NCBI GenBank assembly: GCA_947631185.1
Contig: CANRKJ010000008.1
Location: 514-64,513, forward strand
Direction of reading: 5' to 3'
From: an uncultured Clostridia bacterium
Lineage (GTDB): Bacteria; Bacillota; Clostridia; TANB77; CAG-508
Length of the DNA: 64,000 bases
A program made the translations under genes and the position numbers. Under the pieces are notes generated by a model that worked only from the letters and a program-made list of their open reading frames with translations, had not been told where the DNA came from and did no database searches. Positions 285-38,596 of the stretch are shown here, one piece after another (the first letter of the stretch is position 1; every line of letters starts with the position of its first letter).

Positions 285-725
285 ATGGGAATAGAAACTT
301 CAACTTCAAATGAAGGAAGTAATAACAAAGAAAATAGATTAAATAGATATACTGAAGCAAAGCAAAAAAATGTTTCGTGGGATGAATTAAATAAGATTAT
401 AGATAATAAGGGATTTGCTAATTTTGATATAAATAGTATGGCTGTTTCATTTAATGATAATGTAAAAATTATAGGTGGAGAGGAAAATGACGTTACAGAA
501 GCCACTTCTCATGCAACATATGAATTTGATATGAACAATATGACGACTGTTTTAGCTAATGTTAGAGAAATAAATGATAAAAATATAGCTAAAATTACGG
601 CTAGAAGAGAAAAAGAAAAAGCGAAAAGAAAAGCAAAAAGAAAAGCAGAAGCAGAAGCAGCAAAAAGCAATGTAGTTACTCCAGGATTAGAAGGCAAATT
701 AGAAGAAACAGATAATGAAAAATAA
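285..725 (+). CDS. hypothetical protein with Lys/Glu/Ala-rich C-terminus (conjugative-element remnant)
   Basis: ATG preceded by GGAAAGGGG. 146-aa ORF on the same strand as neighbours. C-terminal EKEKAKRKAKRKAEAEAAK low-complexity tail. Confidence 0.4.
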   Translation: MGIETSTSNEGSNNKENRLNRYTEAKQKNVSWDELNKIIDNKGFANFDINSMAVSFNDNVKIIGGEENDVTEATSHATYEFDMNNMTTVLANVREINDKNIAKITARREKEKAKRKAKRKAEAEAAKSNVVTPGLEGKLEETDNEK

Positions 726-14635: not shown

Positions 14636-14680
14636 AAAAATATAATGTTAACTAAGGGAAAATTAGGATTTGTTCCATAC

Positions 14681-14709
14681 TTGATTATTTTATGTAAATA
14701 TGGTATAAT
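14681..14709 (+). promoter_or_regulatory. sigma-A-type promoter for the G+C-rich ORF
   Basis: TTGATT, 17-nt spacer, TATAAT preceded by TGG. Confidence 0.5.
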
Positions 14710-14781
14710 TGTTATATGTTCGACAATTCGGTCGACATAGTTTGAGATTTCTATCGTATATGATAGAGAGGAGTTAATAGC

Positions 14782-15405
14782 ATGAGAAATAAAACAAGAG
14801 AAGAAAACAACTTAATGCCCGGAATTGTGGCGCTGACTGATTTTTCAGTTCCTGAAGCGCAGGAAAAAATCTGCGAAGGCGAACAGAAGGTCAAAAATGC
14901 TGAAAGTGCAAGTGTAGCCTACTATGCTGGTGATTTTGCCAGTAATAACGAGGCGAAAAAGCACAATGAGGCAAAAAAACTCCGGAGTAAGCAGAGAAAA
15001 ACAAATGTCCGCAAGGACAGGCAAAATCGAATTGATGGGCCTAAAAACAGGGATAAACACATGTATCGCGTAACGGATTCGAATTGCCAATCTATCTACG
15101 GGTATGTAACGAATGGTAATGTGATGCACAGTGACAGACGTCGTATGAGTGCAGCTGAGTATAAGCTGAAGGAGTATTGCTACGAGAGCGAAGCTGGTAC
15201 AGATGTGGATAGGGCTGATACAACTACTGAAAAAGAGACTATAGTCCACACTGAGAATATGACGGACCATATTACACAGGTATTTGTGGATGCTCTGATA
15301 AAAGATGGAGTATCACCTGATGTAGCTCATGATCTGGCAATGAATATTTGGCTTGCCTGCGACGATTATAACCTCGCAGAGGTAGCCTACGGTAATGTCA
15401 AGTAA
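14782..15405 (+). CDS. hypothetical protein on a compositionally foreign (G+C-rich) islet
   Basis: 207-aa ORF after GAGAGGAG. G+C content and codon usage (GCG, CGC, CTG, one CGG) are clearly unlike the flanks. No recognisable family. Confidence 0.5.
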   Translation: MRNKTREENNLMPGIVALTDFSVPEAQEKICEGEQKVKNAESASVAYYAGDFASNNEAKKHNEAKKLRSKQRKTNVRKDRQNRIDGPKNRDKHMYRVTDSNCQSIYGYVTNGNVMHSDRRRMSAAEYKLKEYCYESEAGTDVDRADTTTEKETIVHTENMTDHITQVFVDALIKDGVSPDVAHDLAMNIWLACDDYNLAEVAYGNVK

Positions 15406-15468
15406 GTCCTTTGCAATAGCTTACAGGGCTAAGTTTGTAACGACAATAACTCAAAATCAAAACGAAAG

Positions 15469-15501
15469 GGACGCGGTTACTACCGCGTTCTTTTTGTTTT
15501 T
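15469..15501 (+). terminator. rho-independent terminator of the G+C-rich ORF
   Basis: GGACGCGGT-TACT-ACCGCGTTC stem followed by TTTTTGTTTTT. Confidence 0.7.
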
Positions 15502-15857
15502 GCGGGCGCCCATTGGGCGCCCGCAAAAAAATAATCGAAATAATAAAATGATAAACGTCCATATAACATAATATTATATTGTTTCGACGTTTATTTATAT
15601 TATTAATTTGTAGGGGCGCTCATTGGGCGCCCGCAAAAAAATAATCGAAATAATAAAATGATAAACGCCCATATAGCATAATATTATATTGTTTCGGCGT
15701 TTATTTATATTATTAATTTGTAGGGGCGCCCATTGGGCGCCCGCAAAAAAATAATCGAAATAATAAAATGATAAACGCCCATATAGCATAATATTATATT
15801 GTTTCGGCGTTTATTTATATTATTATTAATTTGTAGGGGCGCTCATCGGGCGCCCGC
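15502..15857 (+). repeat. tandem array (3 units of 110-113 bp plus a terminal partial unit), each unit starting with a G+C-rich palindrome
   Basis: (TGTAG)GGGCGCYCATTGGGCGCCCGC at 15502, 15609, 15719 and 15832. The units are near-identical, including an inner hairpin ATAAACGCC...GGCGTTTAT. Confidence 0.9.
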
Positions 15858-15878
15858 ATGTTTTCTTATATAAAAAGC

Positions 15879-15907
15879 TTGAATTTGCAATACATTTATA
15901 ATATAAT
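15879..15907 (+). promoter_or_regulatory. sigma-A-type promoter upstream of the ABC-F gene
   Basis: TTGAAT, 17-nt spacer, TATAAT. Confidence 0.5.
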
Positions 15908-15943
15908 ATGGAACATAAGTGTGAGATTTCAAGGAGGTTTAAA

Positions 15944-17530
15944 ATGTTAAGTTCAAATGGAGTTACTCTTAGATTTGGTAAAAGGGTTTTGTTTGAAGAT
16001 GTAAATATAAAATTTACTAAAGGAAATTGTTATGGTTTAATAGGTGCGAATGGAGCTGGAAAATCAACTTTTTTAAAGATTTTATCAGGAGAAATTGAAC
16101 CAAATAAAGGAGAAGTTATTTTAGATAAAGGTGAAAGATTATCTATTCTTAAACAAGACCACTTTGCTTTTGAGGAATATCCCGTAATAGATACTGTTAT
16201 GATGGGAAATAGTGAATTATATAGTATTATGAAAGAAAAAGATGCTATATATGCTAAACCAGATTTTTCAGAAGAAGATGGAATGAGAGCTGCTAAGCTT
16301 GAAGAAAGGTTTGCAGAACTTGATGGTTGGAATGCAGAATCAGATAGTGCAAAATTATTAAATGATTTAGGAATAGAATCAGATTTACATTACAAATTGA
16401 TGAAAGAAATTGAAGCAAAAGATAAAGTTAAAGTTTTATTAGCTCAAGCTTTATTTGGTAATCCAGATGTTCTTTTATTAGATGAACCTACAAATGATTT
16501 AGATATAAAAGCAATAAATTGGCTTCAAGATTTTTTAATTGATTTTGATAATACAGTTATTGTAGTATCACATGATAGATATTTCTTAAATAAAGTTTGT
16601 ACTCATATAGCTGATGTTGATTTTGGAAAAATAAAAGTTTATCCAGGAAATTATGATTTTTGGTATGAATCTAGTCAACTCGCATTAAAACAAATGAAAG
16701 AAGCAAATAAAAAGAAAGAAGAAAGAATTAAAGAACTTCAAGATTTTATTGCTAGATTTAGTGCAAATGCTTCAAAGTCAAAACAAGCTACATCTAGAAA
16801 AAAATCTTTGGAAAAAATAGAACTTGATGAAATTAAACCTTCAAATAGAAAATATCCATATATAGATTTTAAACCTGATAGGGAATATGGAAAAGAAATT
16901 TTAGAAGTTAAAAATTTAAGTAAAACTATAAATGGAGAAAAAATATTAGATAATATTACATTTACAATTAAAAGAGATGATAAAGTTGCATTACTTTCAG
17001 ATAATGAAATTGCAAAGACAGTTCTATTTCAAATATTAGCTGGTGAAGAAACTGCTGACTCAGGAGAAATTATTTGGGGAACTACAATTACAAAAGATTA
17101 TTTTCCAAAAGATAATAATTATTTATTTGATTTAGATGTTAATATAGTAGATTGGTTAAGACAATATTCTAAAGATCCAGATGAAACTTATGTTAGAGGA
17201 TTTCTTGGAAGAATGTTGTTTTCTGGAGAAGAAGCCTTAAAAAAAGTTAAAGTTTTATCTGGAGGAGAAAAAGTTAGATGTGTTTTATCAAAACTTATGC
17301 TTTCTGGCGCTAATTTCTTAATTTTTGATGAACCTACTAACCATCTAGATATGGAAAGTATAACTGCTTTAAATGAAGGTATGCAAAAATATAAGGGAAT
17401 ATTATTATTTACATCTCACGATCATCAACTTACTCAAACTGTTGCAAATAAAATCATTGATTTGTCTAATAATAATGTTGTTGTACGTGAATGTACTTAT
17501 GATGAATATCTAGAAGAAATAAATAATTAA
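15944..17530 (+). CDS. ABC-F family ATPase (two ABC domains, no TM; translation-factor type)
   Basis: Two Walker A motifs (GANGAGKST and a degenerate second), LSGGEK signature, LLLDEPTNDL / LIFDEPTNHL Walker B, K/E-rich linker. ATG 15944 follows AAGGAGG. Confidence 0.85.
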   Translation: MLSSNGVTLRFGKRVLFEDVNIKFTKGNCYGLIGANGAGKSTFLKILSGEIEPNKGEVILDKGERLSILKQDHFAFEEYPVIDTVMMGNSELYSIMKEKDAIYAKPDFSEEDGMRAAKLEERFAELDGWNAESDSAKLLNDLGIESDLHYKLMKEIEAKDKVKVLLAQALFGNPDVLLLDEPTNDLDIKAINWLQDFLIDFDNTVIVVSHDRYFLNKVCTHIADVDFGKIKVYPGNYDFWYESSQLALKQMKEANKKKEERIKELQDFIARFSANASKSKQATSRKKSLEKIELDEIKPSNRKYPYIDFKPDREYGKEILEVKNLSKTINGEKILDNITFTIKRDDKVALLSDNEIAKTVLFQILAGEETADSGEIIWGTTITKDYFPKDNNYLFDLDVNIVDWLRQYSKDPDETYVRGFLGRMLFSGEEALKKVKVLSGGEKVRCVLSKLMLSGANFLIFDEPTNHLDMESITALNEGMQKYKGILLFTSHDHQLTQTVANKIIDLSNNNVVVRECTYDEYLEEINN

Positions 17531-38309: not shown

Positions 38310-38335
38310 TGTAGGGGCGCTCACCGGGCGCCCGC
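38310..38335 (+). repeat. G+C-rich palindromic element (same family as the 15.5-kb array)
   Basis: TGTAGGGGCGCTCACCGGGCGCCCGC. Confidence 0.85.
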
Positions 38336-38423
38336 GTGTGATTTTAACATATATTTCATATATTGATACACAATTTACAATATGAATTCGAAAAACAGGA
38401 TATTTGAAAAAAATTAATTCTTT

Positions 38424-38448
38424 CGGGCGTCCAATGAACGCCCCTACA
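38424..38448 (-). repeat. G+C-rich palindromic element, inverted orientation
   Basis: The reverse complement reads TGTAGGGGCGTTCATTGGACGCCCG. Confidence 0.8.
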
Positions 38449-38570
38449 TTATAAATACATGATAAATTTTATATTGTAAAAAATATGAATATAAGAATAA
38501 TAATGATGTATCAAATAAAAAATATGAAAACATAAAATTGAAAATATCGAATAATTTATTGTTTTATACC

Positions 38571-38596
38571 TGTAGGGGCGCTCATTGGGCGCTCGC
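38571..38596 (+). repeat. G+C-rich palindromic element
   Basis: TGTAGGGGCGCTCATTGGGCGCTCGC followed by AAAAA, as in the array units. Confidence 0.85.

Follow-up and report, generated by a model that had tools for sequence, protein, structure and literature searches.

We identified the tandem array at positions 15502-15858 of the window as, in the best explanation of it as a whole, a group of REPs from one GTAG-tagged family set head to tail, a reading to which we assign a probability of about 0.85. The window is the whole 64,000-nucleotide stretch that was analysed, and it corresponds to positions 514-64513 of contig C8 in a genome of 2.05 Mb, 78 contigs, and 26% G+C. The element is of a known kind, the REP/RAYT system (RAYT, REP-associated tyrosine transposase), in a host not described before. 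Its arrangement is unusual, with head-to-tail arrays that have array-specific spacers and a MITE that inserts only into REP loops.

Tandem Repeats Finder resolved a 110-bp unit at 15504-15858 (95% matches, score 641) in 3.2 copies, a count taken from an assembly of short-read type, which at other sites is broken by REP arrays. A repeat search of the window returned three copies of 109 nt at 110-bp spacing, as well as a 38-nt hairpin segment in four copies spaced by 110, 110, and 113. The array is made up of four G+C hairpins and three near-identical 87-90-bp spacers, which lie among the following features of the window:

14782-15405 (+), orphan ORF of 207 aa, about 44% G+C
15471-15501 (+), terminator-like hairpin and T-tract of the upstream orphan ORF, predicted fold -12.4 kcal/mol, then TCTTTTTGTTTTT
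15502-15524 (+), REP copy 1, an atypical perfect palindrome, GCGGGCGCCC-ATT-GGGCGCCCGC, with a 10-bp all-G/C stem
15525-15608 (+), spacer of unit 1, an A-run and then an AT-rich stretch that includes the second hairpin
15550-15595 (+), second hairpin of unit 1, GATAAACGTC...GACGTTTATT
15609-15634 (+), REP copy 2, canonical, TGTAG-GGGCGCTC-ATT-GGGCGCCC-GC
15660-15705 and 15770-15815 (+), second hairpins of units 2 and 3, with a compensatory change of T-A to C-G
15719-15744 (+), REP copy 3, TGTAG present, stem wobble corrected to C-G (GGGCGCCC)
15832-15857 (+), REP copy 4, canonical, loop ATC, closing the array
15879-15907 (+), ABC-F promoter-like site (TTGAAT, 17 nt, TATAAT), 21 bp past the end of REP copy 4
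38310-38596, second REP cluster, with copies at 38310-38335 (+), 38424-38448 (-), and 38571-38596 (+)

The tandem array described by an earlier sequence-only reading is therefore real, and the anatomy of its unit is largely as that reading gave it, including the fourth palindrome that closes the array and the position between a terminator and the ABC-F promoter. Corrections were needed for the stems. The 10-bp all-G/C stem is found in copy 1, but copies 2-4 consist of TGTAG and an 8-bp stem, with a T.G wobble in copies 2 and 4 (GGGCGCTC/GGGCGCCC), such that an array "nucleated" by the longer stem fits only its atypical first copy. This copy has no TGTAG tag and adjoins the T-tract of the upstream terminator. 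A two-sided T/C change had likewise been attributed to the G+C stem, where the change affects one arm (G.T to G-C); it does hold for the second hairpin, whose arms read ACGTC...GACGT in unit 1 and ACGCC...GGCGT in units 2 and 3. RNA folds of the second hairpin were predicted at -11.3 and -13.1 kcal/mol, with z-scores of about -3. Overall, the units differ by four substitutions in unit 1, the T/C difference within the REP, and ATT inserted in unit 3, while units 2 and 3 are separated by one nucleotide and a 3-nt indel only.

The GGGCGCCCGC core was matched nine times in the window at up to one mismatch, against 0.01 expected from shuffles, and three of these matches fall in the second cluster at 38.3-38.6 kb. 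No second copy of the array's spacer occurs anywhere in the genome, and a search of JGI metagenome contigs with it gave zero matches. The sequence-only reading had excluded a CRISPR array, and we concur, as spacers are near-identical to one another inside each array. Plasmid iterons or an origin were rejected on the grounds that the hairpin is genome-wide and extragenic and that a replication gene is absent nearby. An Rfam scan of 15300-16000 gave chance-level matches only, all far under the gathering scores, and a known RNA family was rejected on that basis.

A genome-wide search with the motif GGGCGCYCATYGGGCGCCCGC at up to two mismatches recovered 206 matches, compared to zero for a reversed-pattern control, and at up to three mismatches we counted about 255 non-redundant copies after merging matches on both strands. 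These copies are spread over 90 loci on at least 45 contigs. The palindrome is thus dispersed, as had been suspected, rather than confined to the window. Its consensus is TGTAG-GGGCGCTC-ATT-GGGCGCCC-GCAAAA, with an 8-bp stem and a 3-nt loop, and beyond it lies unconserved AT-rich DNA. The TGTAG tag is present in 164 of roughly 250 copies, with TGTAT and TGTAC variants in 36 more, and an A occupies each of positions +1 to +4 after the hairpin in 80-88% of copies. The stem pair at positions 5/13 covaries across the 255 copies (C-G in 145, T-A in 84, and not Watson-Crick in 26), and 232 retain the T.G wobble that lies one pair away from the loop; the corrected C-G variant seen in copy 3 of the array is rare (14/255). 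Because of this wobble, the GTAG-bearing strand has the better predicted RNA fold, at -15.6 kcal/mol compared to -11.9 for its complement. As judged from the conserved flanking TGTAG and A-run, the covariation, and the kept wobble, the hairpin appears to be under selection. By crude ORF calls, which place 86% of the genome in coding sequence, 225 of the 255 copies (88%) lie outside ORFs. Since a hairpin, a GTAG tag, covariation, and extragenic copies are the defining features of GTAG REPs (PMC3733652), we assign the family to this class.

An intrinsic terminator was rejected as a reading of the hairpin. An A-run follows the consensus and none precedes it, so the REP is an intrinsic terminator on neither strand, there being no hairpin followed by a T-run in either direction. 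This agrees with the earlier remark that the hairpins of the array are not canonical terminators, which extends to the genome-wide consensus; in a loose terminator scan, REP copy 4 alone fitted, weakly. REPs were also considered as terminator-associated insertions, and the comparison was not convincing, with terminator-like hairpins abutting 8 of 169 REP cluster flanks and 44 of 2000 random intergenic sites. The orientation of REP clusters follows the GC-skew-positive strand in 65 of 90 cases, and clusters flanked by co-directional genes are co-oriented with them by 35 to 11. This bias fits either an action at the replication fork or an effect at the transcript level.

A Pfam Y1_Tnp search of the genome pointed to three places, among them a single-copy, full-length HUH/Y1 gene of the RAYT type (C42:156-605, 149 aa). 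Its product passes the cut-off of the Pfam Y1_Tnp model (E 1.7e-9), and its best NCBIfam match is NF047646 REP_Tyr_transpos (1.2e-15), at 57.7 bits against an equivalog cut-off of 80; the NCBIfam IS200 model scores the same protein at 27 bits compared to 58 for the RAYT model. The best PDB relative is 4ER8, the TnpAREP of Escherichia coli (4e-6), to whose HUH motif H79-I-H81 of the C42 protein aligns, while Tyr135 (EYIQNN) aligns to the position counted as Y115 in 4ER8. On either side of the gene lie copies of precisely the REP of the array, inverted relative to each other, with TGTAGGGGCGCTCATTGGGCGCCCGC at C42:53-77 (+) and its reverse complement at 616-642 (-). As read from sequence, gene and inverted REPs together are the classic REPtron arrangement, which is also found in the strains represented by L152 and L153, metagenome contigs 95-99% identical to the REPtron region. 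With the genome-wide motif search and the search for a RAYT both positive, the REP/RAYT idea of the sequence-only reading is supported.

About 500 homologues of the C42 protein, each of roughly 150 aa, are present in public data, and one that is 57% identical was labelled "REP element-mobilizing transposase RayT" by JGI. Homologues from AT-rich gut genomes reach 55-69% identity. The three that we inspected (L124, L127, and L130; 58-67% identical, on contigs of 24-30% G+C) each lie between inverted TGTAGGGGCG...CGCCC hairpins, the distal stems of which differ. The other full-length Y1 protein of the genome, the 256-aa product of C19:209-988, was rejected as a REP partner, as it has a long C-terminal extension and REPs are absent nearby; this Y1/HUH protein may belong to the REP-independent TnpA-Y1 subclasses (PMC6006769). 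A separate observation concerns the MAG RUG11705 (L115, CACXYD010000010.1), in which a RAYT homologue has a REP-like palindrome, GGCGGGCGGCCAATGACCGCCCCTAC, within its ORF at ~760-790, with the frame open. This homologue is 41% identical to the C42 protein by tblastn and 46% in another comparison.

The distribution of the family among relatives is patchy. Across 60 sampled species of the same genus, a partial sample of kin that are not independent, REP-motif matches numbered 81 in G157, 75 in G129, 26 in G168, 20 in G144, and 8 in G171, with two or fewer in each of the other 55 genomes. RAYT homologues (E 1e-15 or better) occur only in G129, G157, and G168, the three most REP-rich of these congeners, where they adjoin REPs; none was detected in the 55 congeners with two or fewer matches. 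This patchy co-occurrence of RAYT and REPs is the pattern that REP/RAYT systems show. The RAYT-bearing G129 has REPs as singletons and convergent pairs, with two direct pairs only and no head-to-tail arrays, and the presence of a RAYT alone therefore leaves arrays unexplained.

In addition to the congeners, an identical 25-nt REP core, GTAGGGGCGYTCATYGGRCGCCCGC, was found in distant gut Clostridia of 28-57% G+C (L034-L123), which include Ruminococcus bromii ATCC 27255, Ruminococcoides intestinale, RUG MAGs, and rabbit-gut Clostridia MAGs. In the R. bromii group, REPs occur as singletons and as convergent pairs 140-440 bp apart. A RAYT homologue was not found at E 1e-5 or better in R. bromii ATCC 27255 or R. 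intestinale, nor was one detected in the congeners G144 and G171 despite their 20 and 8 matches, and REP maintenance therefore does not always depend on the gene. The identical core without a RAYT in R. bromii could reflect transfer between species or gene loss. We rejected the R. bromii group as a recent donor of the whole system, given that R. bromii ATCC 27255 and R. intestinale lack a RAYT homologue and that the RUG11705 RAYTs are 46-48% identical to the C42 protein (41% by tblastn), compared to the 55-69% reached in AT-rich gut genomes.

Within the genome, the array at 15502 is not special, as 60 of the 90 REP loci hold at least two copies and 42 hold at least three. Neighbouring REPs form 165 pairs, and 141 of these are direct, 18 are tail-to-tail (- +), and six are convergent (+ -), so that inverted pairs of the REPIN type (24/165) are not the main form. 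Array periods range from 48 to 177 bp and cluster at ~58-66, 80-86, 100-113, and 120-130 bp. The 131 direct spacers fall into 38 families, 11 of which occur at more than one locus; one family is common to C15:28726 and C46:6004, and another to C24:2334 and C40:10182, where the shared segment lacks a clean end at the REP edge. Arrays are always bounded by REPs at both ends. Several repeat blocks of two or three units and alternate two REP alleles, and many are preceded ~100-140 bp upstream by one inverted REP. A GC-tagged palindrome stands first in at least four arrays (the 15502 array, C24:780, C16:39365, and C24:21258) and reads as if an inverted REP had contributed the left arm and a direct REP the right, with the join at the loop; we interpret REP copy 1 of the window as a probable fusion scar of this type.

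Arrays also vary among strains. Downstream of the RAYT, inverted REP units number three in L152, two in L153, and one in this genome. Moreover, L152 joins the end of C35 (C35:19672-19851) to the start of C42 (C42:1-77), indicating that the RAYT gene is preceded in this genome by a direct array of 80-bp period, inside which the assembly was interrupted.

A 190-bp MITE with terminal inverted repeats GGAGGCTGTTGAAAAAGT was found outside the window in 12 genome copies that are 96-100% identical (C24:992-1181, C9:11183-11372, C9:14378-14567, C23:18551-18739, C13:34154-34342, C47:6882-7071, C42:10631-10819, C42:9290-9478, C15:19395-19583, C28:3-192, C43:9789-9977, and C16:26486-26665). Every copy (12/12) sits in a REP loop, with a 7-bp duplication, TCATTGG. 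A transposase for this MITE was not identified. IS1397/ISKpn1 and ISPpu10 are insertion sequences that target REPs. ISPpu9 is likewise stated to be inserted in REPs (PMC8450116). The MITE shares with these insertion sequences the placement of every copy inside a REP, but differs in being a 190-bp non-coding element in 12 copies with a 7-bp duplication of the loop.

At the locus itself, the order of the genes for a UvrD-like helicase, PGA_cap, ABC-F, a 163-aa ORF, and Tex is kept in the nearest relatives available. These have an ABC-F protein 95-96% identical to that of the window, with DNA about 86% identical. In three of them (L156-158), 84 bp separate the PGA_cap stop from the ABC-F start and the array is absent, and in L159-161 an HD-domain gene lies between the two genes. 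Homology to L156 ends after the PGA_cap gene and resumes at 15872, 14 bp past the last REP, which marks 14636-15871 (~1.2 kb) as an insertion that comprises a promoter, the G+C-rich orphan ORF, a terminator, and the REP array. Within this insertion, which is missing from the nearest relatives, the array occupies the edge. The terminator hairpin and T-tract lie directly 5' of REP copy 1; a consensus terminator scan placed the stem at 15471-15488 on the minus strand only, and the plus-strand assignment follows from sequence and fold. L154, a metagenome contig from another strain, has a 56%-identical orphan ORF between near-identical flanks and breaks off within REP copy 1, where it shows the same junction of terminator and then CGCGGGCGCCC. 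Across L154-L161 the slot between PGA_cap and ABC-F is variable, being empty or occupied by an HD-domain gene or an orphan ORF.

The ABC-F promoter-like site is conserved whether or not the array is present. Its -10 box lies at 15902-15907, and an exact match to the ABC-F protein is not on record. The ABC-F start is probably the ATG at 15945, with the RBS AAGGAGG at 15932, and not the listed ATG at 15908; homologues are 526-530 aa in length. Conserved synteny was rejected for the named congeners G081, G129, G131, and G132, whose ABC-F upstream regions differ; the empty site was seen in closer relatives known from metagenomes.

We hypothesize the following course for the formation of the array. 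The REP hairpin would most likely fold in single-stranded DNA, where the single RAYT of the genome, encoded in the C42 REPtron, would recognise REP hairpins and cut or rejoin them. That RAYT would read the GTAG and the wobble on single-stranded DNA is suggested by analogy with E. coli TnpAREP, which requires both GTAG and a stem mismatch (PMC3479197). We infer from homology and co-occurrence that such activity may have spread REPs to about 90 extragenic loci. At the 15502 locus, two direct REPs would have come to flank ~87 bp of local sequence, and the unit of REP plus spacer would then have been reiterated to three spacers and four REPs, most likely by unequal recombination or replication slippage between REP cores. 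This route is favoured because the repeated block begins and ends inside REP cores and because blocks of several units are repeated. The resulting array is probably selfish or neutral DNA in a variable slot upstream of the ABC-F promoter.

Arrays could instead be made directly by RAYT, which would cut at two direct REPs and free a one-unit single-stranded circle; pasted into the same array the circle would produce growth, and pasted into a REP elsewhere it would found a new array. We regard this as possible, if on the unlikely side. It would account for the REPs at both ends of every array, the 11 of 38 spacer families present at more than one locus, and the rarity of convergent pairs (6/165), which are dominant in the congeners and the R. 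bromii group. Arrays that differ in unit number between strains are found in the REPtron itself, and E. coli TnpAREP cleaves REPs and performs strand transfer on them in vitro (PMC8266576). However, the repeats of two- and three-unit blocks resemble ordinary unequal exchange, the shared spacer segment at C40:10182 does not end at a REP edge, and the spacer of the 15502 array is confined to a single locus. By an extension of the same idea, which we consider doubtful, the replicating unit would be not the REPIN but a module of one REP plus spacer, excised by RAYT as a single-stranded circle and re-inserted at another REP.

A role for the host, in which the array is kept to insulate the promoter, stabilise mRNA 3' ends, or bind gyrase or nucleoid proteins, as has been reported for REP/BIME elements of E. 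coli, appears improbable. Its position, with a terminator on one side and a promoter-like site on the other whose -35 box is 21 bp away, would suit such a role, as would the co-orientation of clusters with genes (35 to 11), the stronger RNA hairpin on the sense strand (-15.6 compared to -11.9 kcal/mol), and the pairing of the second hairpin preserved by two-sided change; REP roles in mRNA stability and in gyrase and IHF binding have been reviewed (PMC2817692). Yet the nearest relatives use the same ABC-F promoter without an array, REPs are not clearly enriched beside terminators (8/169 and 44/2000), and the combination of a unique spacer with near-identical units suggests recent amplification rather than long conservation. 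Comparison with relatives thus does not appear to support a host function at this site. It is also very unlikely that the 3.2-unit array is in part a collapse or expansion by the assembler, a concern raised by the 29 of 156 contig ends that fall within 500 bp of a REP, by the end of the related-strain contig L154 within REP copy 1, and by the small difference between units 2 and 3 (1 nt and a 3-nt indel). Against this, the units carry distinguishing differences, both flanks are unique, and the same architecture recurs at about 60 loci. The terminator/REP junction shared with L154 supports the reality of the first REP and marks a point at which assemblers stop, and an artefact would alter the unit count and not the nature of the element. 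A head-to-tail cluster of GTAG-tagged REPs is the reading that we retain for the array.

The REPtrons of Proteobacteria (E. coli REP/BIME, Pseudomonas REPs, and Stenotrophomonas SMAGs; PMC2817692, PMC3733652, PMC3479197) share many properties with the present system. These include the 5' GTAG and short G+C hairpin, a conserved non-Watson-Crick position, compensatory stem variants, hundreds of extragenic copies, a single-copy HUH/Y1 gene between inverted REPs, and a patchy, species-specific distribution. The host here differs in belonging to the uncultured Clostridia of the gut and in its 26% G+C, and the C42 RAYT, which scores under the NCBIfam equivalog cut-off, is no more than a distant relative of E. 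coli TnpAREP (E 4e-6). A literature search for RAYT or REPIN in Clostridia found nothing, and the reports consulted on GTAG REPs and RAYTs list no Firmicutes. The TnpA proteins of IS200/IS605 are similarly HUH/Y1 enzymes with hairpins in single-stranded DNA as substrates, and a short guide-like tetranucleotide sits at the foot of each hairpin. Unlike those elements, the gene here occurs once and does not form a transposing unit bounded by left and right ends, and the hairpins are dispersed independently of it in hundreds of copies.

Head-to-tail REP dimers are reportedly rare in most genomes, although tandem reiteration of REPs with flanking DNA has been documented (PMC3733652), as have ordered tandem REP arrays in Pseudomonas fluorescens SBW25 (PMC3116915). 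The latter resemble ours in that REPs and flanking sequence are ordered and evenly spaced in tandem and that arrays adjoin the RAYT gene. They also share an orientation bias, which in SBW25 is tied to the chromosome arm and here is to the leading or gene-sense strand (65/90 clusters). Inverted doublets, by contrast, known as REPINs, are the main form in SBW25 and contain 61% of its REPs, while convergent pairs are few here (6/165) and direct arrays hold most copies.

Work on REP/RAYT systems has so far been almost entirely in Proteobacteria. For the questions of how REPs are propagated and what leads some genomes to gather them in arrays, this genome is a compact natural case, with one RAYT, ~255 REPs that are mostly arrayed, and differences in unit number between strains. 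The contrasts on hand, namely congeners with REPs but without arrays or without REPs altogether, the R. bromii core without a RAYT, and the REP-loop MITE, allow comparative tests of array formation and of REP movement between gut species. In practical terms, REP arrays interrupt short-read assemblies, as the 29 of 156 contig ends show, and they could be of use as markers for strain typing. If the doubtful module reading is true, circles of REP plus spacer would build arrays and move modules between loci, which would constitute an undescribed mode of REP propagation.
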